NCBI GenBank assembly: GCA_965207835.1
Contig: CBDBNQ010000002.1
Location: 1,713,224-1,777,223, forward strand
Reading direction: 5' to 3'
DNA from: Nitrospirales bacterium
GTDB taxonomy: Bacteria > Nitrospirota > Nitrospiria > Nitrospirales > UBA8639
Length of the DNA stretch: 64,000 nt
The notes under the pieces are model-generated. The model did no database searches. It was not told where the DNA came from and saw only the letters and a program-made list of their open reading frames with translations. This document shows, one piece after another, positions 1,325 through 47,891 of this stretch (positions are counted from its first letter, which is position 1; every line of letters begins with the position of its first letter). The position numbers and the translations under genes are program-made.

Positions 1325-1393
1325 TATGTCGCTACCATACTGTCTGCTTAATGGCGTATCAAGGTATTTCATGATGCTCATGGAGGGCATCTC

Positions 1394-4988: not shown

Positions 4989-5221
4989 CCGATTTTCAGG
5001 AATACTTGAAGCTGATCCCCATTGTTAATCGTGCACCACAGCATGCTGTCTGGTTAACGTTTGATGCCGAGGCGGACACACTTTATGTGAACTTTAAAAA
5101 GCCCAGCTACGCCACTGACAGCGAGATGTCCGAGGATGACGTCATTGTCCGCTATGAGGGGAAAACGGTGATTGGCTTCACGGTTTTACACGCCAGCAAA
5201 CGACCACCGAAGACGGCATAG
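4979..5221 (+). CDS. DUF2283-family small protein
   Basis: 80 aa with an FDAEADTLYV motif and an IGFTVLHASK tail, characteristic of DUF2283. Confidence 0.7.
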   Translation: MAIADFQEYLKLIPIVNRAPQHAVWLTFDAEADTLYVNFKKPSYATDSEMSEDDVIVRYEGKTVIGFTVLHASKRPPKTA

Positions 5222-9733: not shown

Positions 9734-9771
9734 TGTAGCCAGAGATTGTTGTTTCCGGCAGTTTTTCTCCC

Positions 9772-18581: not shown

Positions 18582-18585
18582 TCCG

Positions 18586-18723
18586 CTACTGCAATTTCTC
18601 AGCCAGCACCTTTTCCGTTTGTTTCCTGCGGTATTCTTCCAGGCTCTTTTTGATCCCCGAATCTTCCAGCGCCAGGATCGCGGCCGCGATCCTGGCGGCG
18701 TTGGCTGCGCCGGCTTCGCCGAT
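18586..18723 (-). pseudogene. Orphan fragment equivalent to the last 45 codons plus stop of purE
   Basis: Aligns codon for codon with 20781-20918 (109/138 nt identical by my count). Would encode [45 protein letters not shown]. An in-frame stop lies immediately upstream, so it is not part of a gene. Confidence 0.65.
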
Positions 18724-18785
18724 GAATTGAAGGCTGCGTCAAGCGTGACGATGTAGTGACATTATAGCTGCCGCGCGGTCAGTAA

Positions 18786-19325
18786 TCATGGGTGATGCCT
18801 CCAATCAAAACGAACTTCAATCTCCCGCAGCATGTCAAACGTATCCTGGTAAATGACGCCGAACTGTCGGCAAACGTTGGGTAGAGGCACTCGTTTCTTT
18901 ACATCCGGGTTGAATTTCTCCTGGGTAACCACGGTTGCGTTATGTCCCTTGGCGTAGGCGGCAACCCACCCATCGGCTACTCTTGCGAACTCCGCTTTTG
19001 CGTCAGGTCGAAATTGGTCATTTCTTCGGACCCAGTCCATCATTTCCGCGAAAGCATCTACGACCGACTGCTCTGCTGATGATATGAAGAGATCGTTTGG
19101 TGCATTTTTCACCCACTCGGCCAACTTGTCTGGAGTATCCTGATTATTTGGCCCTTCCATCAATTCAGCACGAACCCGATCTATACTCAACATTCGTCTC
19201 TCTTGGCTATAGTGTGTCAGGCATTCCCAGAAACCGGGGCACAGGTCTTGCGCGTAGTAGCGACGGTGTGCCTCTATGAAGATGTTCGTATCTAACACAA
19301 ACAACTTTTGCGCGTGGTTCATCAA
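18786..19325 (-). CDS. DUF4411-like (PIN-like fold) protein
   Basis: 179 aa. FVLDTNIFIEAHRRYY...FWE...ADGWVAAYAKGHNATVVTQEK...VPLPNVCRQFGV matches my recollection of the DUF4411 pattern. Confidence 0.65.
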   Translation of the reverse strand: MMNHAQKLFVLDTNIFIEAHRRYYAQDLCPGFWECLTHYSQERRMLSIDRVRAELMEGPNNQDTPDKLAEWVKNAPNDLFISSAEQSVVDAFAEMMDWVRRNDQFRPDAKAEFARVADGWVAAYAKGHNATVVTQEKFNPDVKKRVPLPNVCRQFGVIYQDTFDMLREIEVRFDWRHHP

Positions 19326-20494
19326 AGTAGCATGCTCATCTTTTTCGGCATTCTTTCAAAGGTATCTCCTTTCAGGCCGGTGAGGCTATACGCTTCACGA
19401 TAGAGCAGTCGCCCTTCTTTGACCGCGCGGATGATTGCGGTGCCAAAGCGTGGGCCTATGCGCCATTTCTGGGTGTTCCAAAAATCGCCGCCGTCTGCTT
19501 GGTCCTGTTGTCGGCTGTGCCATTCAGTGTCCTGATATTCCTGATAGAACCTGAAGAATTCATCCTGATCGATTAAATCGAGATCAAGGGCACGACGCGC
19601 TGCCACAAGAGAACTGACTTTGAAGTGACGAGCAATCGCCTGATAACGATCATTCGCTTGCTTGGCGGTATGCCAGAAATTGTTTAAATCGTCCTTCGGT
19701 ACCAGAAATTCAGCAGCCGCCTGATTGCAGAAACGCTCTGTGGCATGGGGCGCTGGCTGCAAGTTTTGGAAAATGGATACACCTGTCTCTCCCACAAAGA
19801 GGTGTGCCAGTTCGTGGGCGAAAGTGAACATCTGCGCTGCCTTGAAGTCAGCGCTATTTACAAAGATAAGTGGAGCATACTCGTCAACGAGAGCAAAACC
19901 TTGAAACTCATCAGAGGCTAGCTTGCGTCGCGTGTTGTTTCCCACGATGCCATTGAAAACCACCAGGACACCGGCATCTTCTGCTTGATCCCGTAGAACC
20001 TTAAGCGCATCCGTCCAAGTGGACACTTGCGAGGCCCAGTCGTGGGACAGTTGCAATGCCTCACGCATGGCAGCAGCGACTTGCCGTGGATGTGCATCAA
20101 TTCTGTAGGCTCCAACGAAGTTCAGAGGTGCGGCGTCATCTTCAATGAGTTCATCGCGCATCCAGGCCTGCCGTCGCTGCATAATCTCCACGGTTTCGAG
20201 AAGGTCTGGACTCGGCCGCGGCGGTGTGTCATCGCTTCGGGTCCGGAAATCAGGTATTGGCAAGTGGTCCTCAGGTGGTTCTGTTAGGTACAGAAAACCC
20301 AGAGGGGTATGGGTACGTTGGGCAAGCCTATCTGCCTGGGCAACACTGATCCTACCGGATTGTTCCCACTCCAAGACGCGTTCTGGTCTCACCTGCATCT
20401 TTTGGGCAAGTTCATCCTGGCTGACGCGCAGTCGCTCTCGTGCCCATCGCAACACGTCAGGCTGCAACGTTATCTTCAAGCCTCGGCTACTCAT
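19322..20494 (-). CDS. XRE-type HTH fused to ImmA/IrrE (COG2856) zinc metallopeptidase
   Basis: 390 aa with an N-terminal HTH (RVSQDELAQKMQVRPERVLEWEQ) and an HELAHL zinc motif. 4-nt overlap with the downstream DUF4411 gene. Confidence 0.8.
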   Translation of the reverse strand: MSSRGLKITLQPDVLRWARERLRVSQDELAQKMQVRPERVLEWEQSGRISVAQADRLAQRTHTPLGFLYLTEPPEDHLPIPDFRTRSDDTPPRPSPDLLETVEIMQRRQAWMRDELIEDDAAPLNFVGAYRIDAHPRQVAAAMREALQLSHDWASQVSTWTDALKVLRDQAEDAGVLVVFNGIVGNNTRRKLASDEFQGFALVDEYAPLIFVNSADFKAAQMFTFAHELAHLFVGETGVSIFQNLQPAPHATERFCNQAAAEFLVPKDDLNNFWHTAKQANDRYQAIARHFKVSSLVAARRALDLDLIDQDEFFRFYQEYQDTEWHSRQQDQADGGDFWNTQKWRIGPRFGTAIIRAVKEGRLLYREAYSLTGLKGDTFERMPKKMSMLL

Positions 20495-20780
20495 GGAGTC
20501 TGCTCTTTATCCAGAGAACGCATCAGAATGTTAGTAGCACCATTACTTGGTCCGACTCGTCGGAGTCATCTGGCAGGTCGTCCGTCACCTCACGCCGCTC
20601 AGTTTGCCAGTAACCACAATGGCAATCAAGCGGGAGCTATTCGAAGGATAGCAAGACGCGGGGAAAGCGGGTGGACGGTGAGGGAAGGAACGGGTCAAAG
20701 AAAGCAGGGGCTCTCGCGATATAAGATCTGTTACAAAAGGCTGAACACGAAAAATCAAGAAATCGTGAGACACCCTGTCA

Positions 20781-21278
20781 TCACTGGAGTTTCTCAGCTA
20801 ACACTTTTTCCGTTTGTTTTCTGCGGTACTCTACCAACCGTTCTTTGATCCCCGAATCTTCGAGGGCCAGAATCGCGGCGGCGAAGAGGGCGGCATTGGA
20901 CGAGCCGGCTTCACCGATGGCCAGGGTGGCGACGGGAATGCCCTTGGGCATTTGGACGATGGAGAGCAGGGAATCGAGACCTTGCAGCGCTTTGGATTGC
21001 ATGGGTACACCCAGAACCGGCAAGGTCGTCTTGGCCGCAATCACGCCCGGCAGGTGAGCCGCGCCGCCGGCGCCTGCGATCATGACGCGAATCCCTCGTG
21101 ACTCGGCTTGGCTCACGTATTCGAATAAGGCATCAGGAGCCCGGTGAGCGGAAATCACACGACATTCATTGGCAATGCCAAGCTGCGTCAACGTCTCGCT
21201 GGCCAACCGCATGACGTCCCAATCGCTTTTACTACCCATCACAATGCCGACTAACGGCGTATCGTTTGCTGAAGCCAC
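20781..21278 (-). CDS. purE: 5-(carboxyamino)imidazole ribonucleotide mutase
   Basis: 165 aa with [15 protein letters not shown] and [10 protein letters not shown] motifs. Confidence 0.92.
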
Positions 21279-27113: not shown

Positions 27114-28954
27114 TCAGTCGACCTTCGCCAGTTGGTCTTTGAGTTCCGCGAGTTGAGTGGAAAGGGTTGACCACCGGCTGGTCAGGACGTCCAGTTCCTC
27201 TTTCCAGCTTTCGTGTTCCTGGTGCAACTCGTTCCACCGGGGAAAATCCTGGTAGAGTTCCGGTGTCGTCAGTTCCTCCGTCCGGGCTTTGATCCGGTCT
27301 TCCAGGGCCGTAATTTCCTCTTCCGACCGGGCTACCTGTTTTTCCAACCGGTTGATCGTCTTGGTCATGTCACGGCGAGTGGGTTTCTCCGGCGGCGGGC
27401 TTGCCTGTGCCGTGGGCAAGGCTTGCCGGGCTTTTGGGGTTTTTTGTCCGGGGAGCGTCCGGGCTTCTTCCTGTGCTTTCAAGGTCTCGAGTTCTTGTGA
27501 ACGTTTCCACAAATAATATTCATAATCTCCCAGGTAATCCTTGACGCGGCCGTCTTCGATTTCCACGACACGGGTCGCGACGCGACTCAGAAATACCGGA
27601 TCATGAGAGATGAACACGATCGTCCCTTGAAAATCGATGAGCGCATCGGTGAGCACGTCGACGGAGGTAGGATCCAGGTGATTGGTGGGTTCGTCCAACA
27701 AGAGCGTGTTTGCCGGTTCCACAAGCATGCGAGCCAGCGCCACCCGGTTGCGTTCCCCGCCGCTCAGGGCCTTGATCGGTTTTTTCTGATCCTGTCCGGA
27801 AAACAGAAGATCCCGGCCGTCTTTCGCAAATAATTCGTCTCGGCCTGGGGCGCGGCTTCGGTCAAGGATTCCAGAATCGAATGCTCGGGGTTCAGGATCT
27901 CCGCTTGGTGTTGGGCGAAATAGTGCAGTGTCACTCCATGGCCTTCCTGCCGGGTGCCGGCTTCGAACGGTAACACGCCGGCGAGCATTTTCAATAAGGT
28001 GCTTTTCCCCGCACCGTTTTCTCCGACCAACGCGACGCGTTGTGCGCAGTCGATGGAAAAGTGCAGCCCCTCATAGACGACGTTGTCGCCGTATTGTTTG
28101 CAGACGTCGTTCAGTTCCAACACGCGGATCCCGCTCTTCGCGGGTTGTGGAAACTTGAATCGGAGCCGTTTGGGATCCCGTTGAGTTTCGAGGAGTTTGA
28201 TCTTTTCCAACTGCTTGAGGCGGGATTGCACCTGTTTGGCTTTGGTTGCCTTATACCGGAAGCGATCCACAAACTTTTGAACGCGCGCGACCTCCTTGGC
28301 CTGACGTTGGGCGGCTGCGGTTTGTTGTGTATCGAGCTGAGCCCGTTGTGACTGAAAGGTCTGGTAGTTGCCCCGATATTCCAGGATCTGACGATGACGG
28401 ATTTCCCAGATGTGCGTGGTCAACCGGTCGAGAAATTTTGTGTCGTGGCTGATGACGAGCATGGTCATTTTCGAGGCGAGCAGGAAGGATTCGAACCAGG
28501 CTTGCGTGGGTTTGTCCAGGTGGTTCGTCGGCTCGTCCAGCAGCAGCACGTCGGGGTTGGTCAGCAGCAGATGCCCAAGAGCCACCCGCATACGATAGCC
28601 GCCGGAATACGTTTGCAGGGATCGCTGCCAGTCTGTCTCTCCAAACCCCAGACCCGATAAAATTCGTTTGGCTTCATGTTCCGGATACTGCTCCCGGTGA
28701 GCCGCTTGGAGCACGGTCAGGTCCGTGGGAGTGTCGAGTTCTTGGGGGAGATATCCAATACGGAGCCAGGGCCGTTTGCGAATGGTCCCGTCGTCAGGCG
28801 AATCCTCGTCGATGATCATCCGGAGCAAGGTCGTTTTCCCCGTGCCGTTTCGACCGACGAGGCCAACCCGGGTTTCTGGACGGAGATGGGCCGACGCCTC
28901 GGAGAAAAGCGTTTTCGTCGGGTACTGTTTAGTCAAAGATTCAATGTGGATCAT
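27114..28954 (-). pseudogene. ABC-F family ATPase split by a single-base frameshift
   Basis: ORFs 27764..28954 and 27114..27743 together give two ABC cassettes plus a C-terminal coiled coil. The reading frame changes at the A4 run 27800-27803. One added base restores ...AGIFCFSGQDQKKPIKALSGGERNRVALARML... Confidence 0.8.
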
Positions 28955-31947: not shown

Positions 31948-33627
31948 ATGTCCAATCCTCAGCAGGCTTCCACAGACTTCATTCGCGCGATTGTGGCGCA
32001 GGACCGGGAGAGCGGGAAATTCGACGGCGTTGTGCATACACGTTTCCCGCCGGAACCCAATGGCTATCTTCACATCGGCCACGCCAAATCCATTTGTTTG
32101 AATTTCGGCATTGCGCAGGAAGTTGCCGGGGGGCTGTGTAATTTACGGTTCGACGACACCAACCCCGCCAAGGAAGACGTGGAATACGTGGAATCCATTC
32201 AGGAAGACGTGCGCTGGCTGGGGTTCGACTGGCAGGACCGGCGTTTCTTCGCCTCGGATTATTTCGAGAAGTTATATGAGTATGCGGTGTGGTTGATCAG
32301 GAAAGATAAGGCCTACGTGGATAGTCTGACCGCGGACGAGATTCGATCCTACCGGGGGACCCTGACGGAGCCGGGCAAGGAGAGCCCATATCGAACGCGA
32401 TCGGTGGAGGAGAATCTTGACCTGTTCTCGCGGATGTGTGCCGGCGATTGCGAAGAAGGGGCGCACGTGCTCCGTGCCAAAATCGACATGGCCTCGCCCA
32501 ACATCAATATGCGCGACCCCACGCTTTACCGGGTCCGGCGGGTTTCGCATCACCGGACGGGCACTGCGTGGAACATCTATCCCACGTATGATTTTGCGCA
32601 TCCGCTATCTGACTCCATCGAAGGCATTACGCATTCCCTCTGCACCCTGGAGTTTGAGGACCATCGGCCCTTGTACGATTGGGTGCTGGACGAATGTGAA
32701 GTGATCTGCCATTCCCAGCAGATTGAATTCGCGCGCTTGAATCTGACGCACACGGTGATGAGCAAGCGGAAGCTGTTGGAACTCATCGAAGAGTCGCACG
32801 TGTCCGGATGGGATGACCCGCGTCTCCCCACGCTGATGGGCTTGCGCCGTCGCGGCTATCCCCCGGAGGCGATCCGGCGGTTTTGCGAGCACGTCGGGGT
32901 GGCGAAACGCGACAGTGTGGTGGAGGTGAGCCTGTTGGAGCATTGTGTCAGGGAGAACCTGAATGCGAGTGCGCAACGAATCATGGCCGTGCTCCGGCCT
33001 CTGCGTGTCGTCATTACCAATTACCCGGAAGGTCAAGTGGAAGACATGCAGGCGGTCAATAATCCCGAGGATCCCGAGATGGGGAGCCGGGCGGTCCCGT
33101 TTTCCCGCGTTCTTTATATCGAGCGTGAAGATTTTCGTGAAGATCCGCCGAAAAAATATTTTCGGCTCTCGCCCGGCCAGGAGGTGCGGTTGCGCTATGC
33201 CTACATCATTCGATGCGAGGACGTGATCAAGGATGAGCAGGGAGAGGTCGTTGAAGTCCGTTGCACGTATGATCCGGAAACGAAGAGCGGATCAGGACAG
33301 CCTGGTCGAAAGGTGAAGGGCACCATTCACTGGGTGTCCGAGCCACATGCGCTCGAAGCCGAAGTGCGGTTATTCGATCATCTGTTTTCCGATCCCAATC
33401 CCGAAAAGGACGGCCGGGACTACCGGACCGTGCTCAATCCGAACTCGGTGGAACGGTTGCAGAGCTGCCGGGTCGAACCGGCGTTGCAGGGAGCGGTTGC
33501 CGGCCAACGGTTTCAGTTCGAACGGCAAGGCTATTTCTGCGTGGATTCCGATTCGACCGGCCAACGGCTCGTCTTCAACCGCACCGTCGCCCTCCGCGAT
33601 TCCTGGTCGAAACTCGAAAAGCAATAA
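31948..33627 (+). CDS. glnS: Glutamine--tRNA ligase
   Basis: [17 protein letters not shown] (HIGH) and VMSKR (KMSKS) motifs, plus a GlnRS-type C-terminal beta-barrel region. Confidence 0.92.
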
Positions 33628-33814
33628 AAATTTTTCTGTCATCCTTGCGCACGCGAGGAACCAGGGTCTTTATCCTTACGAACGGCGCAAGAAAGAAAGA
33701 CCCTGGATCCCCGATCAAGTCGGGGATGACAGCAGGGGAATAACCGTAAGTCGGGTTGGCCCTTCGACTACGCTCAGGACAGGCGTAGCGTAACCCGACA
33801 GCGTGCCTTCTATT
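33521..33814. repeat. Direct repeat copy 1 (last 107 bp of glnS plus downstream REP-rich spacer)
   Basis: 294 bp, ~284/294 identical to 36745-37038 by my count. Confidence 0.9.
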
Positions 33815-33869
33815 GCATCGGCATCGATATCTTGACCGTTCCTCCAACGAAGGAATAGATAAGTGAGTC

Positions 33870-34831
33870 ATGGCTGTCAACAGAGATAAACCTGACCGGT
33901 GGAGACAGGATATTGCGCAGTCGGTGGATATGTACAACGACTGGTTCGTACGGTTTGCGCCGGCGGCTTATCGCACGACGAGGGTGCAGACAACAAAGGA
34001 GGTCGAGGCGACACTGAAAGCGACGAACAATTTGTCAGATATCAGCGTGGCGTTGCTAAAAGCAAAGCCCTCTGCCCTACCGACATTGCGGATGTCTACC
34101 TGCCCACCTTTGGCCGTGGATCGTTTGATCGGTCTGGCAGGTATTTCGAAGAATCTTGTTAAGGTAATGGAAAAGGAAGCGAAACTCCCGCCACTGATGC
34201 CACAACGGGAGCTGGACAGTGATCTCGAGAAAATCGGGGAGACTATCGAGAAGATGGCCGACCCGGACATCTTCGTCTGGCTGGAACGTGGCGACAATCC
34301 GTCTAAACAGGAATTACACCGAGCGGCGACGATCGTTGCGGACCGTCTGTGTGGTGCGGTTGCAAATCCGATTATTCGGAATGCGCAGGAAAAGCGCCAA
34401 CTTGGCGCAGTTGCGGAGTGGCTGACGGCGTTGGGCTATCAAAATCTGCCTGCAGGTGAAGGCACAAAATATAGCGACATGCAGCCAGGGACATTCTCGT
34501 TCCGGCTGAATGTTCCAATTAAGCAGAAAAAACCCGCAGATCGGTCAACATTCCTGTGGACGCTGTCATCATGCCGAAGAGCGCAAAAACAGGTGAGTTG
34601 CCGTTACTCGTCGAAGCGAAATCAGCGGGTGATTTCACGAATGTTAACAAACGGCGCAAGGAAGAGGCCGCAAAGATGAACCAGTTGCGACGGACTTATG
34701 GCAAGGACGTACGGTTCATTTTATTCCTATGCGGATATTTCGACAGCGGCTATCTCGGTTATGAAGCTGCGGAAGGCATTGACTGGGTGTGGGAGCACCG
34801 TATAGACGATCTCGGGGAGTTTGGACTTTAG
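33870..34831 (+). pseudogene. Type II restriction endonuclease (XamI-like by recollection), frameshifted
   Basis: ORFs 33870..34679 and 34556..34831 are two frames of one gene. The frame change must lie between 34523 and 34556, and an A6 run sits at 34527-34532. One added base restores ...NIPVDAVIMPK...LPLLVEAKSAGDFTNVNKRRKEE (D...E.K nuclease-like motif). Confidence 0.65.
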
Positions 34832-36425
34832 ATGGCGAAAGATATAACCAGAGCATTGGAAGAGCAACGACTGGCACTGCAGAGAGAACTGGATGCCGGT
34901 AAGGAACAGGCGGAACGGAACCGTATGGGCCAGTTTGCGACGCCTACTGAGCTGGCCGTTGACATACTTCGGTACGTAAAGGCACATCTCGTAGGGAAAA
35001 GCAGGAAGGTGCGCTTTATCGATCCGGCTCTTGGAACCGGCTCGTTCTATTCAGCCTTGCTTGAGGTGTTTCCAAAGCGACACATTGCTGTCGCCGTTGG
35101 CTATGAAGTAGATCCGTATTATGGCGCGCCGGCGGCAAAACTGTGGGACGGGACCGGGCTGGATACTCGACTGGCGGATTTCACCCAGGCCGGTCCGCCG
35201 CCGGAAGCTGCAAAGTTCAATCTGCTGATCTGTAATCCGCCCTATGTGCGGCACCATCATATCATCAACGAGGAAAAACAACGGTTAAAAAGCAAGACAC
35301 GCGACGCCTCTGGCGTAACTATCAGTGGCTTGGCCGGCTTGTATTGCTACTTCCTGGGGTTATGTCATGCATGGATGGCAGATGGCGGCTTGGCTGATAC
35401 CGAGCGAATTCATGGACGTCAACTATGGCACTTCGGTGAAGGGCTATCTGCTTAATAAAGTGACGCTACAGCACATTCACCGCTTCGACCCGAAAGAAGT
35501 GCAATTCGGCGATGCGCTAGTATCGTCGGTAGTTGTCTGCTTCCGCAAGAAAGTCCCACCGCAGGGACACGCGGTGCGGTTTACCTATGGCGGCTCATTG
35601 GAACAGCCGAAACTTGAACTTCTGGTGCCGGTTGATACATTGCGTAACGATCCGAAGTGGACGCGGTACCCAATGAAGCAGAGATTTGAAGCAGCGAATG
35701 GACCGGTTCTGGGCGATTTCTTCAAGATAAAGCGTGGTCTGGCGACGGGGAATAACAATTACTTCATTTTGTCGGCTGACGACATCAAACGCCGTGAACT
35801 GCCGATGGAGGCGTTTCGGCCGATATTGCCCAGTCCACGCTACCTGTCAGAAGATGAGGTTCCGGCGGACAGTACAGGTAACCCCGTGCTGAAACGACGG
35901 GTATTCCTGCTGGATTGCCGGTTGGAGGAACCGGAGGTCGAGAGGCGGTATCCGAAGTTGTGGGCCTATCTGGAAGAAGGAAAGGCTCAAGGCATCGCCG
36001 CACGTTATCTCTGCCGGCACAGAACGCCATGGTACATACAGGAGAATCGCCCACCATCGCCGTTCCTGTGCACCTATCTTGGCCGAAGTGACACGAAGAA
36101 CGGTCGTCCGTTTCGCTTCATTCTCAATCATTCGCAGGCAACGGCCGCGAATGTGTATTTGATGCTCTATCCGAGGGGGTCGGTCGAACGCGCCTTGAAG
36201 GATAACCCAACGCTCAAAAGGCAGATCTGGGAATTTTTGAACGAGATTTGCCCGAAGGTGATGCTCGGTGAGGGTCGGGTCTACGGCGGTGGACTCCACA
36301 AGCTGGAGCCGAAGGAACTTGACAACGTCCCTGCTGTGAGGATCGCAGAACTGCTGCCAGAGCCAGCGCGGCCTCGTGAACAGAAGCAGGTCGATCTGTT
36401 CGAGCCAGTCTTCGGGAGCTTTTGA
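34832..36425 (+). pseudogene. Gamma-class N6-adenine DNA methyltransferase (Eco57I/TaqI-like), frameshifted
   Basis: Motif I DPALGTGSF precedes motif IV NPPYVRHH. ORFs 34832..35455 and 35325..36425 join if one T of the TT at 35390-35391 is removed, giving ...HAWMADGGWLIPSEFMDVNYG... Confidence 0.75.
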
Positions 36426-36578
36426 AGAATCGCTTTAGTAATATTCACCGGTGTGTCTGGAAGAATGATGACAGACCGAAAGGAAAAAATCAGAGGGTTC
36501 AGGGCACGACGCGTTGCGGGACAGGACACCCCTGGTGGTCGCCTTCATTCTCGCTTTTGCTTGAAAGGAGGAATCGCT

Positions 36579-36719
36579 ATGGGAAAAACAATGCTGAAGT
36601 ATACCGGTCACACGACCGCCCTGGTTGCCATTAGTTGGTTCTTGTTACTTGTTGGACAGCTTACTGAGTTGCAACTTGTCTCTATCCCGATATTGGCGAT
36701 TGCCAGGGTCCTGCCCTGA
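36579..36719 (+). CDS. Small hydrophobic ORF at the island edge
   Basis: 46 aa, preceded by AAAGGAGG 6 nt upstream of the ATG. One predicted membrane helix. No homology recognised. Confidence 0.3.
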   Translation: MGKTMLKYTGHTTALVAISWFLLLVGQLTELQLVSIPILAIARVLP

Positions 36720-36744
36720 GCCCTCTGAGAAAACAGCGATAGTC

Positions 36745-37038
36745 AACGGCAAGGCTATTTTTGCGTCGATCCCGATTCGACCGGCCAACGGCTCGTATTC
36801 AATCGCACCGTCGCCCTCCGCGATTCCTGGTCGAAACTCGAAAAGCAATAAAAATTTTTCTGTCATCCTTGCGCACGCGAGGACCCAGGGTCTTTATCCT
36901 TACGAACGGCACAAGAAAGAAAGACCCTGGATCCCCGATCAAGTCGGGGATGACAGCAGGGGAATAACCGTAGGTCGGGTTGGCCTTTCGACTACGCTCA
37001 GGACAGGCGTAGCGTAACCCGACAGCGCGCCTTCTATT
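36745..37038. repeat. Direct repeat copy 2 (non-coding duplicate of the glnS 3-prime end plus spacer)
   Basis: See copy 1. Ends at the metF stop codon. Confidence 0.9.
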
Positions 37039-37921
37039 CCATAAGCATGTCGACGCGCTGGAGCCCCAGCGTTTCGTAAATCTGTAACGAGGCCCTGGAT
37101 TTGTTCAGGGTGTAGAGATGCACCCCAAGGACCTTGTTATCCAGCAGGTCCAAGACCTGTTCCGTGGCCCAATGGATGCCGATCTTTTCGGCCTGGGTGT
37201 CATCCTTTGCGCTCGCCAGGGCGCGAAGCAATCTTCCCGGAAAGCGTGCGCCCAAGGCGAGTTCCGCCATCCGCTTCATCCCTTTCAGTGAGGTAATCGG
37301 CATGATGCCCGCGATGATGGGGACGTGGATCCCGGCCAGTTGGCACCGTTCGCAGAAATCGTAGAAGTCGCGATTGTCGAAAAACAGTTGCGTGCAGATG
37401 TAGTCGGCGCCGGCGTCGACTTTGGCCTTGAGATACTCGATTTCCTGGAGCCGGTTGGGTGTGTCGGGATGGCCTTCGGGGAATCCCGCTACGCCGATCC
37501 CCATATGAGGAAAATGTTTTTTGATAAAAGCGACCAGTTCCACGGCGTGGCGGAAGTCCTGCTCGGACGGATCGCACGGCTCCTGGCTGGGCGGGTCGCC
37601 GTGCAGGGCCATGATGTTACGGATGCTGTGTTCGTCATACCGTTGGAGAATCCGGAAAATTTCATCCCGGCTCGACTTCACACACGTCAGGTGCGACACG
37701 ATCGTCAGATTTGTCTCATTGTGCAACTTGACGACCAGGTCATGAGTCAGGTCGCGCGTTGATCCACCTGCGCCATAGGTGACGCTGACGTAGGCGGGTT
37801 TCAGAGGAATCAATTTCTGAATAGTATGAAACAACGACTCCGACGCAGCCTCACTCTTTGGAGGAAAAAACTCAAAACTGATTGCAGGCTGGCTTTGCCG
37901 AAACACTTCTGCTATATGCAT
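37034..37921 (-). CDS. metF: Methylenetetrahydrofolate reductase
   Basis: 295 aa with FEFFPPK and VTYGAGGS motifs. Confidence 0.9.
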   Translation of the reverse strand: MHIAEVFRQSQPAISFEFFPPKSEAASESLFHTIQKLIPLKPAYVSVTYGAGGSTRDLTHDLVVKLHNETNLTIVSHLTCVKSSRDEIFRILQRYDEHSIRNIMALHGDPPSQEPCDPSEQDFRHAVELVAFIKKHFPHMGIGVAGFPEGHPDTPNRLQEIEYLKAKVDAGADYICTQLFFDNRDFYDFCERCQLAGIHVPIIAGIMPITSLKGMKRMAELALGARFPGRLLRALASAKDDTQAEKIGIHWATEQVLDLLDNKVLGVHLYTLNKSRASLQIYETLGLQRVDMLME

Positions 37922-37995: not shown

Positions 37996-39339
37996 TTGAT
38001 AGAAATCACGTGTGTTCAAGGTAGCCTCCTCGACGTTGAGACCCAGGCTATCGTCAATGCCGCGAACAGTTACGGCCTCATGGGCGGAGGCGTGGCTGGG
38101 ATCATCCGGCGCGCCGCCGGGTCGCAGGTGGAAGATGAGGCGCGTGAACAGGCACCGATACCCGTGGGTGATGCCGTGCTGACGTCTGGCGGGCGCACGC
38201 GTTTCGAGGGGATTATTCATGCGCCGACCATGCCGGAGCCGTCCATGCGCATCCCCGTCCAAAACGTGAAATTAGCCACACAAGCCGCGCTCCGGCTTGC
38301 CGATGAACAGGGCTTTGTCTCCCTCGCCATTCCCGGTATGGGCACGGGGGTCGGCAGGGTCGCTCCCGAGGAAGCCGCGCAAGGGATGGTGGAAGTCATT
38401 CGACAATTTCAGCCCCGCTCCCTGCAATCGGTCATTCTGGTGGATATTGATCCCGTGATGGTCCGGGCCTGGCAGGCTACGCTGTCCCGGCCCCCGGCAC
38501 TCGAAGACGAATTTTGCGACATCGTGAAAAAGGCACGGAAGGGGAGAGGGCAAACAATCTCCGGCGCGGCGGAAACCGCGCAGCTTCGCAAAGACGATTG
38601 GGAGAGCCTGGAACAGGGTGCCCGTGCCCCGTCGGAACACGAGGTTCAGGCTATGGCCCGGGTTCTGGCCCTCAGATCTGAGGCGCTGAGCGCAGTGTCC
38701 ATAGGGGGGTGGGTGCCGCATTCATCTCCGGCGTGGGTCTCTTCGCTGGTAGTGACGGTGTTGGGTGACATCGGGGGCTACGAAGTCAAAGGGTACGTTT
38801 TAATCGATCCGCAAACCAAACAAGCGATCTTTATCGATACGGCGTATAATGCGGAGGCCATGCTGGCCGTACTTGACGTGCAACACGCGACGTTGACCGG
38901 CGTGTGCCTTACGCATGGGCACATGGATCATGCCGGGGGGCTGGATCGGATTTTGTCTGAATGGTCCGTACCGGTGTATCTTGGAGAAGGAGATTTTCCT
39001 TTGTTGCCTTGGAAGCCACCAAAAGACAGGGTCGTTGTTCCCGAGGATGGCCGGATCATTGCCGCGGGGGACTTGAAAGTCGAATGTCTCGCCACACCCG
39101 GCCATACTCCCGGCGGGATTTGCTATAACGTGCAATCTCGAGGCCAGGCGCTCTGTTTCGTCGGGGATACGCTGTTTGCCGGGTCCGTGGGCGGGTCCAA
39201 TCCGCTGTCGTTGTATGCGGAGCATTTGGCATCGGTTCGTCGCCGGGTCTTGCAGTTGGATCCGAACACGGTGTTGCTCCCCGGGCACGGGCCGCCGACC
39301 ACGGTCAACGAAGAACGTCTCATGAATCCCTTTGGTTGA
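37996..39339 (+). CDS. Fusion protein: N-terminal macro domain plus C-terminal metallo-beta-lactamase-fold hydrolase
   Basis: 447 aa. Macro motifs AIVNAANSYGLMGGGVAG and IPGMGTGVG. MBL motif THGHMDHAGG with downstream TPGHTPG and LPGHG. TTG start. Confidence 0.8.
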   Translation: MIEITCVQGSLLDVETQAIVNAANSYGLMGGGVAGIIRRAAGSQVEDEAREQAPIPVGDAVLTSGGRTRFEGIIHAPTMPEPSMRIPVQNVKLATQAALRLADEQGFVSLAIPGMGTGVGRVAPEEAAQGMVEVIRQFQPRSLQSVILVDIDPVMVRAWQATLSRPPALEDEFCDIVKKARKGRGQTISGAAETAQLRKDDWESLEQGARAPSEHEVQAMARVLALRSEALSAVSIGGWVPHSSPAWVSSLVVTVLGDIGGYEVKGYVLIDPQTKQAIFIDTAYNAEAMLAVLDVQHATLTGVCLTHGHMDHAGGLDRILSEWSVPVYLGEGDFPLLPWKPPKDRVVVPEDGRIIAAGDLKVECLATPGHTPGGICYNVQSRGQALCFVGDTLFAGSVGGSNPLSLYAEHLASVRRRVLQLDPNTVLLPGHGPPTTVNEERLMNPFG

Positions 39340-41841: not shown

Positions 41842-41960
41842 CGTCATCCCCGATTTCTCCTTCTGTCATCCTCGACATTTTTAATTGAGGATCCAGTGTC
41901 TTTGTTTTTGTATTTCTCCCTCTCCCGCTGGAGAGGGCAGGGGTGAGGGGAGGGGCGAAA
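41842..41960. repeat. REP-like intergenic repeat cluster
   Basis: Contains GTCATCCCCGAT..., GTCATCCTCGAC...GAGGATCCAGTG and CTCCCTCTCCCGCTGGAGAGGGCAGGGGTGAGGGG modules. Confidence 0.6.
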
Positions 41961-43351: not shown

Positions 43352-43386
43352 GGTCAAGGGTGTTTTCTCTTTCTTTTGTCTTTGCC

Positions 43387-43478
43387 TGTCATCCCCGACC
43401 TGATCGGGGATCCAGTGTCTTTTCTTTCGCCTTTGTATTCGTAGCCGCGCCATCCCCCGATCAAGCCGAGGGCAGGCC
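43387..43478. repeat. REP-like hairpin modules
   Basis: GTCATCCCCGACCTGATCGGGGATCCAGTG and CCATCCCCCGATCAAGCCGAGGG. Confidence 0.55.
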
Positions 43479-43490
43479 CATGGCGCGTTC

Positions 43491-43584
43491 CTCCAAGCAG
43501 CATAAGATGCTATCGCTACAACCTGAAAATGAATGTTCTCCGGCAGGCAGAGGAAATGAGGAACCAAAAATCCAGTCTACGGGC
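43491..43584. repeat. Direct repeat copy 1 flanking higBA
   Basis: The 70-bp core 43515-43584 matches 44370-44439 at 64/70. The leading CTCCAAGC.GCATAAG is also shared. Confidence 0.8.
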
Positions 43585-43683
43585 GGGTAAATGGAAAAGA
43601 CAAGTCGTTACATGGGGAGGCATTTCATGGCGGCGCGGTCTCGAGTGATTCCCCGAGACAGGCCGAAGCGACCTGCAGGTGGG

Positions 43684-43980
43684 CTACCCCAGCGCCGCAG
43701 CCGGTTGGACGCCGTCGATTAGCCGATGTTTCTCCCCGGCCAGCTTGCGAAAGTCACACTCGACTTGGATGCCGTGCCAGAACTGGTCTGACTGGCCGAA
43801 GAAGGCGCCGAATCGAATCGACATGGCCGGCGTAATCGACCGGCGGCCATGCACGATTTCATTGATCGCGCGCGGGGCCACACCGATGGCACGTGCCATG
43901 GCGTTCTGCGAAATCCCCATCGGCTTCAGGTACTCCTCAAGCAAAATCTCGCCGGGTGTGATAGGCATGTCCATATTCAT
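43684..43980 (-). CDS. higA: HigA-family antitoxin (XRE HTH)
   Basis: 98 aa. [44 protein letters not shown]. Confidence 0.8.
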
Positions 43981-44006
43981 ATCCTATAACGTCATAAGGT
44001 CATTTT

Positions 44007-44285
44007 TCAATGATAATCCACGATCGCCACCTGTTCCGGTCAGGCATCGGTCCATCTGAAGACGATACGCCATTGGTCGTTGATGCGAATGGAATGAAAG
44101 CCCGAATGCCGCCCGCTCAGAGCTTCCAGCCGGTTACCGGGCGGGACGGCAAGGTCACTGAGAGCACCGGCTTGATTCAATTGAATCAATTTTCGTAGCG
44201 CAACTCGCGATAGCGCGGCAAACCGCCGATTGCGTTCCAACGTGAATAGTTCTTCCGTATCCCTGTCCGCAAATGATCGGATCAT
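44007..44285 (-). pseudogene. higB: HigB-type (RelE superfamily) toxin with an in-frame premature TGA
   Basis: The 81-aa ORF ends ...[14 protein letters not shown] at TGA (44040-44042). The same frame continues PEQVAIVDYH to a second stop at 44007-44009, matching the usual HigB C-terminus. Confidence 0.7.
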
Positions 44286-44321
44286 GACTAACGCCTAGCT
44301 GCGCCATCTCATAGCACTCTC

Positions 44322-44439
44322 CTCCAAGCCGCATAAGGCATGTCCCGGGCTTTGACCCGGGATGCTGCAGCTACAACGTGAAAAAGAATGTACTCCGGCA
44401 AGCAGAGGAAATGAAGAACCCAAAATCCAGTCTACGGGC
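44322..44439. repeat. Direct repeat copy 2 flanking higBA
   Basis: As copy 1, but carries an extra ~24-bp GTCCCGGGCTTTGACCCGGGA hairpin module. Confidence 0.8.
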
Positions 44440-44539: not shown

Positions 44540-44568
44540 TTGACACTAACTCCTATTTTTGGTACATT
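44540..44568 (+). promoter_or_regulatory. Candidate sigma70-type promoter for the transposase
   Basis: TTGACA (44540-44545), 17-nt spacer, TACATT (44563-44568). AAAGGAG lies upstream of the ATG at 44606. Confidence 0.4.
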
Positions 44569-44605
44569 ACTAGACACCAAACACAAGCCAAAAGGAGTGT
44601 CAGGC

Positions 44606-45559
44606 ATGCCGAAGAAAGCCCCTGGAAAGTACTACCGACATGGAATCAGCTTGGTGGAATTGATTGACCGTTTCCCCGACGAAGCCTCAGCGCGGACCTG
44701 GTTTGAGTCGATTCGATGGGCCAAAGGCCGGTCGTGTCCACATTGTGCATCCGCTGACACCAAGCCGGTTCCGAACGACAATCCCATGCCGTACCATTGT
44801 GGAGCCTGTCGCAAGTATTTCAGCGTCAAGACGGGCACGGTGATGCAATCCAGTAACCTGTCCTTGCGGAAGTGGGTCGTTGGGTTTTATCTGATGTCTA
44901 CGAATCTCAAGGGCGTTTCCAGCATGAAACTCCACCGGGATTTGAAGGTTACACAAAAGACGGCCTGGATGATGGCCCAGAAGATTCGACAAGCTTGGAA
45001 GAGCGACCAAACGGCCTTGCTTGGGCCGGTCGAAGTCGATGAAACGTATATCGGCGGCAAAGACAAAAACAAGCATGCCAGCAAAAAGACGCAACGCGGG
45101 AATGCCTATGGAGTGAAGCAAGCCGTGGTCGGCATGAAGTCCCGGACCACGAATCAGATTGCGGCCCAACCGATTGATCCAGTCAGCGCCACCACGTTAC
45201 AACGATTTGTCAAAACGAATGCGCCGGACAGAACCCAAGTCTATAGCGATACAAAGCGCGGATACTGGGGCTTACGGAAGGCCGGGTATACCGTGGATCA
45301 AGTGAACCATTCGGCTGGGGAATATGTCCGTGATATGGCCCACACCAATGGCATTGAATCCTTTTGGGCGATGTTGAAGCGAGGCTATCACGGCACCTTT
45401 CACAAGATGAGTGCCAAGCATCTACATCGCTATGTAGATGAGTTTTCCGGTCGGCATAACGTGCGTGAGTTGGATACGATTCAGCAAATGACCGTCATGG
45501 TTCACGGGGTGGTAGGGAAGCAGTTGCCGTATCGGGAGTTGATTGCCAATGCTAGCTAA
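44606..45559 (+). CDS. IS1595-family transposase (zinc ribbon + DDE)
   Basis: CPHC...CGAC zinc-ribbon motif, then KWVVGFYLM...VEVDETYIGGK..., typical of ISXO2-like/IS1595 transposases. Confidence 0.85.
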   Translation: MPKKAPGKYYRHGISLVELIDRFPDEASARTWFESIRWAKGRSCPHCASADTKPVPNDNPMPYHCGACRKYFSVKTGTVMQSSNLSLRKWVVGFYLMSTNLKGVSSMKLHRDLKVTQKTAWMMAQKIRQAWKSDQTALLGPVEVDETYIGGKDKNKHASKKTQRGNAYGVKQAVVGMKSRTTNQIAAQPIDPVSATTLQRFVKTNAPDRTQVYSDTKRGYWGLRKAGYTVDQVNHSAGEYVRDMAHTNGIESFWAMLKRGYHGTFHKMSAKHLHRYVDEFSGRHNVRELDTIQQMTVMVHGVVGKQLPYRELIANAS

Positions 45560-46535
45560 GGTCGGGCAACGGAAGAAGGGCCGGTCGAGGGGGGTTCTGT
45601 TCACACATCCAGCCCAACCTGTCTTCACGTATCGGCAAGCGGTTTTCTATCAGGCAGACTGCTTTGATTGGTTGGAGAAGTGCCCTGATCAGAGCCTGCA
45701 CGCAATTGTAACGGACCCACCTTACGGCCTTCTGGAATATTCCGAAACCGAGCAGCAAAAACTTCGGAATGGCCGAGGCGGAGTCTGGCGGCTCCCTCCG
45801 TCTTTTGATGGGAATGAACGGTCCCCGGTCCCGCGTTTTACCGTCTTGACTGACGAGGACTTGGCGAGAATGCATACGTTCTTTGTCCGGTTCGGCAAGA
45901 CCTTGGTTCGGGTGCTCGTTCCGGGTGCGCACGTCTTCCTTGCGTCGAATCCACTTCTCTCCCACATTGTTGCCTCAGCTCTATCAGGATCAGGGCTGGA
46001 AAGCCGAGGGATGATTATTCGATGTGTCATGACGATGAGAGGTGGGGACCGTCCCAAGAACGCCCATGAAGAATTTCCAGACATCAGTGTGCTGCCCCGC
46101 TCCATGACCGAGCCGTGGTTGTTATTCAGAAAGCCTCTTGAGGGCCGGGTTCAAGATACTCTTCGCAAGTGGGGGACTGGTGGGTTGCGTCGCATATCAG
46201 GCAACCAGCCTTTTGGGGATCTGATACGTTCCCATCCGACTCGCTCGAACGAGAAACGATTGGCCCCACACCCTTCTTTGAAACCTCAAGCCTTTCTCCG
46301 GCAGGTCGTCCGTGCGGCTCTTCCGTTGCAGATGGGGATTATCTGTGACCCGTTTGCGGGGTCCGGCTCAACGTTGGCCGCAGCCAATCATATGGGTTAT
46401 GAAAGTATTGGGATTGAAAGCTCGTCGTATTATACGGGGATGGCACAAAGAGCGGTGCCGGTTCTTGAAAAGATCAGGTGTCTAAGTACACCCAGTTCTG
46501 ACGCCACTTTTGAATGCCTTGCTTGTCGAGGGTAG
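45549..46535 (+). CDS. Beta-class DNA methyltransferase (N6-adenine or N4-cytosine; DPPY type)
   Basis: Motif IV TDPPYG precedes motif I DPFAGSGST (the PF01555-type order). The start overlaps the transposase stop. Confidence 0.85.
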   Translation: MLAKVGQRKKGRSRGVLFTHPAQPVFTYRQAVFYQADCFDWLEKCPDQSLHAIVTDPPYGLLEYSETEQQKLRNGRGGVWRLPPSFDGNERSPVPRFTVLTDEDLARMHTFFVRFGKTLVRVLVPGAHVFLASNPLLSHIVASALSGSGLESRGMIIRCVMTMRGGDRPKNAHEEFPDISVLPRSMTEPWLLFRKPLEGRVQDTLRKWGTGGLRRISGNQPFGDLIRSHPTRSNEKRLAPHPSLKPQAFLRQVVRAALPLQMGIICDPFAGSGSTLAAANHMGYESIGIESSSYYTGMAQRAVPVLEKIRCLSTPSSDATFECLACRG

Positions 46536-47660: not shown

Positions 47661-47754
47661 ATTCTTTCCCCGGCCCCTTCCTCCAAGTCTCGCAGGCATG
47701 TCTCTGCCCCTGAGCAGGGATCGCGTGGACAAAGGCAAAGCAAAAAGCAAAGAC

Positions 47755-47891
47755 GCTGGATCCTCGATTAAAGATGTCGAGGATGACAGAAGGGGGGAAA
47801 GCGCCCTCACCCCGGCTCTCTCCCGGAGGGCGAGGGTGAAAAAAAGAGAAAGGCCCTCTACCTCCCCTCGCCCCTCCTTACAAAAGAGGGG
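47755..47891. repeat. REP-like intergenic repeat cluster
   Basis: Contains GGATCCTCGATTAAAGATGTCGAGGATGAC, GCCCTCACCCCGGCTCTCTCCCGGAGGGCGAGGGTG and CCTCCCCTCGCCCCTCCTTACAAAAGAGGGG modules. Confidence 0.6.

Follow-up and report, generated by a model that had tools for sequence, protein, structure and literature searches.

Introduction

XamI (GTCGAC), an isoschizomer of SalI, belongs to a Type IIP restriction-modification (R-M) system. Defence hotspots that are flanked by core genes and lack mobility genes are known from Pseudomonas and enterobacteria, and homology-facilitated illegitimate recombination and gene conversion between dispersed repeats are known from naturally transformable bacteria. 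The insertion of R-M genes with long target duplication was described by Nobusato et al. (2000, Gene 259:99) and Furuta et al. (2010, NAR 38:2428, PMC2853133), the published repeats being 46–423 bp in length. The R-M island described here was found in a 64-kb stretch of DNA from a Nitrospirales bacterium (the window). It illustrates a known pattern clearly and is no new type of element.

The cassette and its boundary genes

Two convergent housekeeping genes enclose the island. On the left glnS (glutaminyl-tRNA synthetase; 31942/31948–33627, plus strand) is intact, with Pfam tRNA-synt_1c and C-terminal domains; its product is 91% identical to that of Nitrospira sp. bin75 and 83% identical to that of OZ244060. 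The right boundary gene of the hotspot, metF (methylenetetrahydrofolate reductase; 37034–37921, minus strand; PF02219), is also intact, with synteny in L002, L161, L163, L164 and L167. Pfam searches and ORF inspection bore out the original prediction that the segment holds only R-M genes and a tiny hydrophobic ORF; no integrase, transposase or terminal inverted repeat was found in 33.4–37.2 kb, again as predicted.

The portable 2.6-kb R-M unit starts with a conserved upstream region, CGATATCTTGACC...GGAATAGATAAG (33816–33869, plus strand), where homology with L161–L167 begins, the unrelated loci L165 and L166 included. This region would be the promoter, and a promoter consensus scan gave no match. 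It is followed by a XamI-family Type II restriction endonuclease pseudogene (R; 33870–34831, plus strand), in which PF09572 (RE_XamI) is split across two frames at profile positions 1–167 and 178–256 (of 256). The adjoining pseudogene (M; 34832–36425, plus strand) was matched by Pfam as a gamma-class N6-adenine DNA methyltransferase with the catalytic Eco57I-type methylase domain PF07669 and the target-recognition domain M_Eco57I_C; PF07669 and PF22837 are precomputed on the 98% homologue P0001. Motif I (FIDPALGTGSF) lies upstream of NPPY, which is the gamma-class order, and the closest solved structure is M.BseCI (E = 2e-5).

The third component is a 46-codon hydrophobic ORF (36579–36719, plus strand) preceded by AAAGGAGG. 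A Pfam search of this ORF gave no match. Its frame is also open in L161 and L164; of the codons that differ from L164, 5 are synonymous and 10 non-synonymous, and purifying selection on the ORF is weakly suggested.

Distribution of the cassette

The cassette was found at the same glnS-metF site in five relatives: L161 (a sister 98% identical at the nucleotide level), L162, L163, L164 and L167. Its position and junctions are shared, the left junction CAT..GCAT|CGATATCTTGACC being common to all five. The cassette genes are intact in L161–L164, and M is split in L167. Other bacteria (L165 and L166) carry the 2.6-kb unit at unrelated loci, where the homology begins at 33816–33821. Homologues number in the thousands across several phyla; among the best 120 listed, identity is 68–98% (M) and 78–94% (R), and some of the homologues listed are annotated "XamI family restriction endonuclease". 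Plasmid-borne family members are 49–64% identical in amino acids over the full protein. The gene pair is a horizontally acquired, foreign unit, a reading that the sequence comparisons support.

Between M and metF, differing genes were found in L163, L164 and L167, and the end of an IS481-like transposase lies 3' of glnS in L001. The glnS-metF interval behaves as a recurrent insertion hotspot, with lineages differing in the cargo that lies right of M. The proposed ancestral arrangement of glnS, spacer and metF is supported by L002 (glnS 83% identical in amino acids), where the two genes are direct convergent neighbours with no R-M genes between them. A search for empty sites yielded this one in a more distant genome and none in a close relative; all close relatives carry the island, and the objection that every relative might do so with no empty-site allele holds in part. 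The spacer in L002 is 520 bp long and unalignable, so that the original target duplication stays putative.

Structure and origin of the direct repeat

Direct repeats of 294 bp with 284/294 identical positions had been noted at 33521–33814 and 36745–37038. They are present with 10 mismatches, and the homology extends further, to 33824 and 37048, giving 291/304 identical positions, ungapped, with 13 mismatches. Only these two copies of the full repeat lie within the 64-kb window. Copy 1 (33521–33824, plus strand) comprises the last 107 bp of glnS (33521–33627), genuine as predicted, a spacer (33628–33815) and, at its right edge, a microhomology of about 9 nt to the end of metF and the left end of the cassette. 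Copy 2 (36745–37048, plus strand) comprises a glnS 3' pseudo-fragment (36745–36851), a spacer (36852–37038) and, last, the first bases of the 3' end of metF. It is non-coding, as had been proposed, and enters the 3' end of metF by about 11–14 nt.

The 294-bp repeat is a composite of the 107-bp glnS end and a spacer of about 190 bp, the latter containing a native terminator hairpin and a dispersed hairpin element of about 110 nt. The MITE/REP-like hairpin-rich element (33634–33740, plus strand, with a second copy at 36858–36964; RNA fold z = -5.4) has 9-bp terminal inverted repeats, CTGTCATCC (33636–33644) and GGATGACAG (33724–33732). Copies with 75–78% identity over 90–112 nt lie at unrelated loci in L168–L174, and partial copies occur in the window at 43386–43428, 47740–47795 and 41855–41907; the element belongs to a dispersed family. 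It was not found in either spacer of L161. The second hairpin, GTCGGGTT...AACCCGAC (33750–33799, second copy 36974–37023), is the counterpart of the native bidirectional glnS/metF terminator hairpin that L161 has in its right spacer; the loop is larger in the window. The possibility that the whole 294 bp is a dispersed repeat present at many loci was not borne out: the repeat as a whole is locus-specific, and about 110 bp of it belongs to the dispersed hairpin family.

Of the five relatives L161 alone has a flanking repeat, which consists of the 107-bp glnS end only (pseudo-fragment at 9921–10027), and its left and right spacers are unrelated to each other. No long flanking repeats were found in L163, in L164 or at the cassette's other loci. 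L167 has a 13-nt trace, TCGAACGGCAAGG, upstream of metF (at 9239); elsewhere in the 2.2 Mb of loci searched this 13-mer is confined to glnS. The left spacer in the five cassette-bearing relatives is unrelated sequence of 57–264 bp. That of the window is a copy of its right spacer, and the cassette-upstream TTCGTTTCT, kept even at the unrelated loci L165 and L166, has been overwritten and lost. The left spacer of the window is thus a derived state.

Functional glnS in the window ends in the pseudo-copy allele (..EKQ*, vs ..EKK*), and its end shows 1/104 differences from the pseudo-copy of L161, compared with 6/104 from the functional copy of L161. The five differences within the glnS part of the repeat, four of them synonymous, are all alleles of the functional glnS of relatives, and so the divergence of the repeat is no clock. 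Across the window and L161, the four copies of the glnS end make up a mosaic not resolvable into a single history. The island edges are tracts of high divergence (about 4%) between the window and L161; the edges of either genome are therefore possibly recombinant imports, which weakens any polarity drawn from L161 alone. Divergence is 2.7% between the two spacer copies, higher than that of the R-M core between the genomes; the spacer may have come from the copy of another strain, or the event may lie further back than supposed.

The best explanation overall, to which we assign a probability of about 0.7, is an old insertion of a portable XamI-family R-M cassette followed by later extension of the repeat and by decay. 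The 2.6-kb unit (promoter, R and gamma-class N6-adenine M), accompanied by the 46-codon ORF, would have entered the short terminator spacer where glnS and metF converge, in the ancestor of a Nitrospirales clade and without an integrase, and would then have been inherited at that site. In an earlier step than the extension, a glnS 3' pseudo-copy of at least 107 bp would have been placed at the far end of the island, beside the native spacer and metF. In the window lineage a one-ended homologous event, for which the 107-bp glnS repeat gave the anchor and the TTCT/CAT..GCAT microhomology the point of resolution, would have copied the right segment (glnS end, dispersed hairpin element of about 110 nt and terminator hairpin) over the left. 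The repeat would thereby have grown to about 300 bp; possible pathways are gene conversion and homology-facilitated illegitimate recombination. The mechanisms of both the original duplication and the extension are putative. Direct repeats of about 300 bp now allow RecA-mediated pop-out of the dead island.

A different route, which we regard as doubtful though the strongest of the competitors, involves no target duplication at any time. The glnS 3' pseudo-fragment and native spacer would have been patched in later from an island-free strain (glnS-spacer-metF), through homology in metF and an illegitimate join where the small-ORF module ends on its right; variable cargo, the 442-aa gene of L164 for instance, would have been replaced. 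The lack of long repeats in L163 and L164 and at the other loci agrees with such a patch, as does the homology of L164 to the window, which ends no more than 2 nt from the start of the glnS fragment and gives way to a different gene. The pseudo-copies also share clade-specific glnS states (GGCCAACGG) with the functional copies of the window and L161, and the island edges are recombination tracts. However, L167, of the other subclade, keeps the 13-nt start of the glnS fragment between cargo and metF, and the fragment therefore predates the window/L161 lineage. The W2 glnS-end copy, moreover, has several ancestral-type states, and a coincidence of breakpoints would be required.

The original prediction had the insertion occur in the window lineage in one step, duplicating the whole target of about 294 bp, with the 10 mismatches as later decay. 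The island does have the published hallmarks (R and M inside, an insert below 20 kb, a repeat above 30 bp, no mobility genes), published repeats often cross the stop site of a gene, and a genuine case lies in the same window at mdh/purE. This model is nevertheless improbable and is largely refuted by L161–L167. Five relatives share the cassette and its left junction with no repeat or with the 107-bp part alone, conserved cassette sequence is missing at the left junction of the window, and neither L161 spacer holds the hairpin element that lies in both copies. The glnS-part differences, being functional alleles, are not random decay. Production of the 294-bp duplication by the R-M insertion is not supported by these sequences; insertion with long target duplication is plausible at the R-M island for the 107-bp core only.

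Other bracketed cassettes in the window

The same bracketed architecture had been reported at 18586–20918 and 43491–44439, and both sites are real. The second cassette (18588–20919) has repeats of 137 bp with 81% identity (18588–18724 and 20783–20919) around a DUF4411 gene (18786–19325, minus strand) and an HTH/Peptidase_M78 gene (19322–20494, minus strand). A purE-3' pseudo-copy (18588–18724) adjoins the mdh stop, and the functional purE 3' end lies at 20781–20919. The mdh/purE site is empty in L168, L169, L170 and L173, with the genes 4 bp apart, and L171, L172 and L174 have other cargos with shorter purE fragments. Both purE-3' copies of the window align to the single copy of the empty-site relatives, and duplication lengths vary with cargo. 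Insertion with long target duplication is demonstrated for this cassette by the empty sites of close relatives, and the mechanism operates in this genome. The third cassette (43506–44439) has 79-bp direct repeats with 89% identity (43506–43584 and 44361–44439) and contains HigA-like (43684–43980, minus strand) and HigB-like (44040–44285, minus strand) genes.

The geometry at glnS and at purE alike, an intact gene end beside the island and a displaced pseudo-end beside native downstream DNA, is also the classic one for an integrase-borne element. The R-M island could then be the remnant of an element site-specific for the glnS 3' end, with the repeats as attL/attR and with the integrase and most cargo lost; such repeats are the alternative class of flanking direct repeats in Furuta et al. 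(PMC2853133). We consider this origin unlikely. No integrase or recombinase was found in the interval in six genomes or in four mdh/purE islands, the purE duplications range with cargo from about 41 to 137 nt, unlike a fixed att site, and the glnS repeat is missing from L163 and L164.

Inactivation of the R-M system

Comparison with intact relatives confirmed the prediction that both enzyme genes are frameshifted and the system inactivated. The R frameshift lies, as predicted, at the A6 run at 34527–34532. L161 has A7 and other relatives have an interrupted run of equal length, and the window is accordingly one base short (A7 to A6). The R orthologues of L161–L165 and L167 are intact, at 320 aa. 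The position given for the M frameshift (TT at 35390–35391) also held, but the change is not a single-base indel: at about 35383–35392 the window reads GGCGGCTTGG where L161, L162, L163 and L167 read GGCGGCTTGGCGGCTTGG and L164–L166 have variants, so that 7/7 relatives have 8 more bases. The M lesion is a slippage deletion that removed a single unit of an 8-bp tandem repeat. Compared with the seven relatives both lesions are derived, and decay would have proceeded by two replication-slippage deletions, one in each gene.

The R-M core differs by about 0.6% from intact L161. Lineage-specific substitutions (3 synonymous and 1 non-synonymous in R, 4 and 2 in M) show no relaxed selection. Since relatives carry a mostly intact cassette at the same site, the island is old and the window copy died recently.

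The ABC-F gene of the window is also split, by a 1-nt deletion, and a single-base assembly error is therefore possible for the R lesion. A dead M together with a live cognate R would be lethal, for which reason the R lesion is probably real. We infer that the R indel is biological and not a base-calling error; any order in which R and M were inactivated is likewise presumptive. That the repeat, the frameshifts or both are assembly or base-calling errors and the system is intact is very improbable: the R lesion is a homopolymer-length change and the ABC-F split a third single-base coding indel, yet 13 positions separate the repeat copies, L161 provides an independent assembly of the 107-bp part, base-calling errors do not take the form of the 8-bp loss between perfect direct repeats seen in M, and the remaining indels between the window and L161 are all intergenic.

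Comparison with known systems

Like XamI systems (Pfam PF09572; NCBI "XamI family restriction endonuclease"), the island has R followed by an NPPY N6-adenine methyltransferase, and the repaired R is a full-length PF09572 match. It differs in that both genes are inactivated, and its kinship to GTCGAC enzymes is by family match only; GTCGAC is mildly under-represented (17 observed vs 28 expected).

The proposed extension resembles gene conversion and homology-facilitated illegitimate recombination in that one side is anchored by homology (107 bp of glnS at about 95% identity) and the other ends in a few bases of microhomology (TTCT/CAT..GCAT), but it is deduced from the end-product only. With core-gene-flanked hotspots the island shares a fixed interval between housekeeping genes and defence or addiction cargo that varies by strain; examples across the intervals are R-M, DUF4062, Abi_alpha, Type ISP R-M, D12 methyltransferase and DUF4411/ImmA. 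Unlike those hotspots, the window intervals lie between convergent genes with stops 4–45 bp apart, and the filled sites bear duplicated 3' gene ends of variable length.

Relative to insertions with long target duplication, the repeat of the R-M island is multi-event, 107 bp being common to the sister and the rest secondary copying. Other relatives have the same R-M insertion with no repeat, there is no alignable empty site, the Nitrospirales host is not among the taxa listed, and the other two window sites carry toxin-antitoxin-like cargo instead of R-M genes. The likeness lies in an insert of about 2.9 kb with R and M and no mobility gene, and in long, target-derived direct repeats that cross the stop codon of a gene and have lengths within the published range. 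The defining relation of empty site to filled site is seen in the same window, at the mdh/purE cassette.

Sequences compared

Comparator contigs (L161 to L167) were those of matches to the repaired M and R proteins. The protein searches returned thousands of homologues from several phyla; the best 120 listed were 68–98% (M) and 78–94% (R) identical to the query and included a 98% M on a 2.61-Mb circular contig and one 94% R. The sister genome L161 was 98% identical to the window at the nucleotide level across 17 kb. L162, L163, L164 and L167 were more distant clade members (glnS approximately 88% identical in nucleotides), while L165 and L166 were unrelated loci from other genomes. The window was placed in the Nitrospirales by glnS, the product of which was 91% identical in amino acids to that of Nitrospira sp. 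bin75 (L001); the product encoded in OZ244060 (L002, a 2.46-Mb Nitrospirales chromosome) was 83% identical to that of the window. Only these two were obtained in the genome scan with glnS, and a JGI metagenome scan with the same query gave no relative above 75% amino acid identity, and hence no empty glnS-metF site from that source. The lineage is uncultured and probably host-associated or marine. The mdh/purE locus was compared with close relatives (mdh 96% identical in amino acids; L168 to L174). Fit to insertion with long target duplication was assessed with the criteria of Furuta 2010 (PMC2853133).

Gene content of the island

The direct repeat at 33521–33820 and 36745–37044, located by repeat search and pairwise alignment, encloses an R gene, an M gene and a 46-codon hydrophobic ORF (36579–36719) with a strong AAAGGAGG ribosome-binding site ahead of it. 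This is the content given in the original prediction, and base-by-base comparison over the span first proposed gave 284/294 identities. The R gene matched PF09572 (RE_XamI) above the gathering score in two frame fragments (227.8 and 138 bits) covering positions 1–167 and 178–256 of 256, a full-length match; no solved relative was found for R in a PDB sequence search. The M gene, inside the repeats with R, encodes an Eco57I-type N6-adenine methylase domain (PF07669) in which FIDPALGTGSF (motif I, approximately residue 62) precedes NPPY (motif IV, residues 134–137), the gamma-class order. The 98% M homologue has PF07669 and the C-terminal target-recognition domain PF22837 (M_Eco57I_C), and the nearest solved structure to M was M.BseCI.

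As had been predicted, the 2.9-kb insert was free of integrase and transposase ORFs and of terminal inverted repeats. No tyrosine or serine recombinase gene was found in this interval, either in the window or in L161, L163, L164 and L167. The G+C content of the insert (0.51–0.55) was slightly below that of the flanks (0.56–0.60); scanning the interval with Rfam and for tRNAs, promoters and terminators gave no useful information. The portable unit extends from 33816 to approximately 36425, homology to all seven relatives, L165 and L166 included, beginning at 33816–33821 (CGATATCTTGACC...) and stopping shortly before the M stop codon. Plasmid-borne family members, annotated as XamI family restriction endonuclease, were found in Psychrobacter, cyanobacteria, Corynebacterium and Ca. 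Manganitrophus. The description of a foreign, integrase-free and now-dead R-M island was borne out by the presence of the unit at unrelated loci and by the disruption of both genes. The L167 and L165 cassettes (4940–5037) share approximately 65 nt of extra sequence upstream of R, read by eye as the putative 3' end of another gene; this stretch is progressively trimmed through L166, L162–L164, L161 and the window.

The recognition sequence of XamI is GTCGAC. It occurs 17 times in the window versus 28 expected (ratio 0.6), a mild depletion that was too weak to serve as a guide to specificity. One such site (the canonical XamI/SalI target) lies at 37049–37054, in the 3' end of metF and right after the last base of the repeat copy adjoining metF, and none lies within the island; the abutting position may be a coincidence or may record a break-initiated event.

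The order glnS-R-M with the same left junction was found in L161, L162, L163, L164 and L167, followed, where the contigs extend that far, by metF and then a macro/MBL gene; the island is old at this site. Within the M-metF interval a DUF4062 gene was present in L163 and L167, the 46-codon ORF with a 442-aa gene in L164, and another gene in L162. In L002, glnS and metF are direct convergent neighbours 520 bp apart without R-M; the glnS part aligns with the window (82%), but the 520-bp spacer does not. The L001 contig stops 270 bp past glnS in an IS481-like transposase remnant. Because the M-metF cargo varies and this remnant follows glnS in L001, the glnS-metF interval was regarded as an insertion/replacement hotspot. 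The protein encoded at 37996–39339, a fusion of macro, HTH and metallo-beta-lactamase domains, is kept beside metF across the clade and gave a weak Anti-Pycsar Apyc1-like match in relatives.

Loss of function

Alignment of the window with L161 gave three coding indels over 17 kb, the remaining indels all being intergenic. Compared with the seven relatives, R is 1 nt short and M is 8 nt short, so that both reading frames are interrupted. Single-base frameshifts had been proposed for both genes, which holds for R and not for M. In R, the run at 34527–34532 is A6 where L161 has a pure A7; since the run is interrupted in deeper relatives, the slippery homopolymer arose in the lineage of the window and then slipped. 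In M, one 8-bp tandem unit was lost at approximately 35383–35392 (net frame effect +1), the window reading GGCGGCTTGG versus GGCGGCTTGGCGGCTTGG in L161, L162, L163 and L167, with same-length variants in L164–L166. The repair of M first suggested, deletion of one T, was rejected on the comparison with L161.

Base-calling artefacts do not take the form of an 8-bp deletion, and the death of M is therefore genuine. Since an active cognate R kills a cell that has no M, the R lesion is probably also real and not an artefact. The R-M core differs from that of L161 by approximately 0.6%, and the window-specific substitutions (3 synonymous and 1 non-synonymous in R; 4 and 2, respectively, in M) show no relaxed constraint; death of the system is recent. 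Independent decay of the same cassette was seen elsewhere: in L166 (5038–6000) R is split into ORFs of 172 and 133 aa with M intact, and in L167 (6001–7597) M is split into ORFs of 460 and 52 aa. Outside the island, an ABC-F ATPase gene (27114–28954, −) has a 1-nt deletion at 27807 giving ORFs of 396 and 209 aa; it is intact in L161 (613 aa), and the split reflects either true pseudogene formation or an indel in the assembly.

Structure and history of the repeat

Ungapped homology between the copies extends to 33824/37048 (304 bp, 13 mismatches), and only two copies were found in the 64-kb window. The left copy opens with the final 107 bp of glnS (31942/31948–33627, +); the right copy is non-coding and reaches approximately 11–14 nt beyond the stop codon of metF (37034–37921, −). 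The flanking repeat of L161 comprises only the 107-bp glnS end (6821–6927 versus 9921–10027, 95%), and its left (57 bp) and right (approximately 45 bp) spacers are mutually unrelated. The right spacer of L161 is a compact hairpin, GTCGGGTT-12 nt-AACCCGAC, with a T-rich run on one side and an A-rich run on the other, which is how a native bidirectional glnS/metF terminator should look. The window spacer consists of an L161-type hairpin with an enlarged loop and a hairpin-rich element of approximately 110 nt.

This element (33634–33740; second copy 36858–36964; fold z = −5.4) has 9-bp terminal inverted repeats (CTGTCATCC/GGATGACAG) and an inner GATCCCCGATCARGTCGGGGATC hairpin, and is situated in intergenic regions of the clade. 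Copies 75–78% identical across 90–112 nt were found at unrelated loci in L168–L174 (approximately 4324–4433), with partial copies in the window at 43386–43428, 47740–47795 and 41855–41907. An exact-pattern search for the motif in the fetched loci gave nothing, the diverged family being visible by BLAST, and no target-site duplication was identified for the element. It is probably a MITE/REP-like family.

The entire right-hand spacer of the window is also present on the left, where it replaces the short left spacer of every relative together with approximately 10 nt of sequence from upstream of the cassette (TTCGTTTCT), which is kept even in L166 and L165, the unrelated loci. The return to cassette sequence on the left falls within a TTCT/CAT..GCAT microhomology. 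A reading of the left-junction CAT..GCAT as a metF remnant, left by duplication into metF, was discarded, as the motif and the TTCGTTTCT ahead of it belong to the cassette upstream sequence at the unrelated loci. The last codon of the functional glnS of the window is Q, and K in all other functional genes; its end differs at 1/104 positions from the L161 pseudo-copy and at 6/104 from the L161 functional copy. From the right-hand spacer on the left and the pseudo-copy alleles in functional glnS it was concluded that right-to-left copying in the lineage of the window took in one segment, glnS end and spacer together, an event that would have been anchored in the 107-bp glnS repeat. The repeat is thus an older 107-bp duplication that was lengthened later, when a spacer with the dispersed hairpin element was copied secondarily.

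The 107-bp core may also, though less probably, be a later patch from an island-free allele. No second glnS fragment was found in L163 or L164, and the L162 contig stops before the right junction. In L167 the beginning of the fragment, TCGAACGGCAAGG, has survived between cargo and metF, and elsewhere in the 2.2 Mb of fetched loci this 13-mer was found only inside glnS. The 13-nt trace points to an old duplication, which would have been eroded in the other lineages. The glnS parts of the two window copies have five differences (four synonymous), all of them alleles of functional glnS in relatives; the copies are therefore trading sequence with functional alleles and cannot be dated by their divergence. 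Window and L161 differ in SNP density by region, with approximately 4% at both island edges and 0.6% in the core, a further indication of recombination tracts at the edges. The glnS-end copies, two in the window and two in L161, form a mosaic irreducible to one history.

Other bracketed cassettes

The bracketed-cassette architecture recurs in the window, as was predicted, at mdh/purE and at a HigBA locus. The mdh/purE cassette (18588–20919; hotspot 17640–21278) holds a DUF4411 gene and an HTH/Peptidase_M78 gene, and a 137-bp pseudo-copy of the purE 3' end adjoins the mdh stop codon. The site is empty in L168, L169, L170 and L173, where 4 bp separate the stop codons of mdh and purE, and both purE-end copies of the window align to the single purE end of these relatives. 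Other cargos were a D12 methyltransferase with two ORFs (L171), two ORFs (L172), and Abi_alpha with a Type ISP R-M (L174). The purE 3' pseudo-fragment lies beside mdh in every filled allele and differs in length in each (approximately 51 nt in L171, 41 nt in L172 and 43 nt in L174). No tyrosine or serine recombinase gene was found in the islands of these three relatives. Defence/addiction cargos make the convergent mdh/purE junction a polymorphic hotspot.

The HigB/HigA cassette (43506–44439) lies between 79-bp repeats. Immediately to its right (44540–46535) are an N6_N4 DNA methyltransferase gene and an IS1595-family transposase gene that overlaps its start. The stretch at 1352–4634 has more defence genes and what may be remnants of genes. 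Three tandem 303-bp units at 8912–9817, the second and third matching the first at 86% and 65%, lie in a 337-aa open frame without a Pfam match (8897–9910, −), adjoined by a prolyl-oligopeptidase-family gene.

Discussion

The glnS/metF island is a well-resolved example of R-M cassettes settling, persisting and dying without a mobility gene. It also calls for caution on two points: an insertion is not necessarily dated or recorded by a long flanking repeat, which grew here by secondary copying, and the mismatches between the repeat copies are imported alleles that do not time decay. As a lead, the mdh/purE site is probably more useful; because an empty allele and at least four different cargos occur among close relatives, it is a natural system for integrase-free turnover of defence genes and for the origin of long, variable target duplications.

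A broader interpretation, to which we would give roughly one chance in four, is that, in this Nitrospirales population, junctions of tightly abutting convergent housekeeping genes (glnS/metF, mdh/purE) act as integrase-free landing pads. Insertion and exchange of addiction and defence cassettes (R-M, toxin-antitoxin, Abi) there would follow a common mechanism duplicating a variable length of the 3' end of one gene. The duplicated ends would then be portable arms of homology through which cassettes excise, re-integrate and undergo gene conversion, even overwriting the functional gene end. If true, this would widen the 'long target duplication' life cycle of Kobayashi from R-M to defence cargo generally.

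Measured against insertion with long target duplication (Furuta 2010), the window has R and M homologues both inside the insert (PF09572, PF07669), and the insert is 2.9 kb (limit <20 kb) and free of mobility genes. The repeat, required to be >30 bp and not high-copy, is 294–304 bp in two copies, with approximately 110 bp of it in the dispersed hairpin family. Correspondence of both copies to one at an empty site was found at mdh/purE, where the cargo in the window is non-R-M. The 294-bp repeat is not shared by the genomes that share the insertion: L161 has 107 bp, L163 and L164 none and L167 a 13-nt trace. The interpretation first offered stands in part: the 294-bp repeat is not the footprint of R-M insertion, but the mechanism evidently operates in this genome, as seen at the mdh/purE empty site, and the R-M island belongs to an already known pattern.
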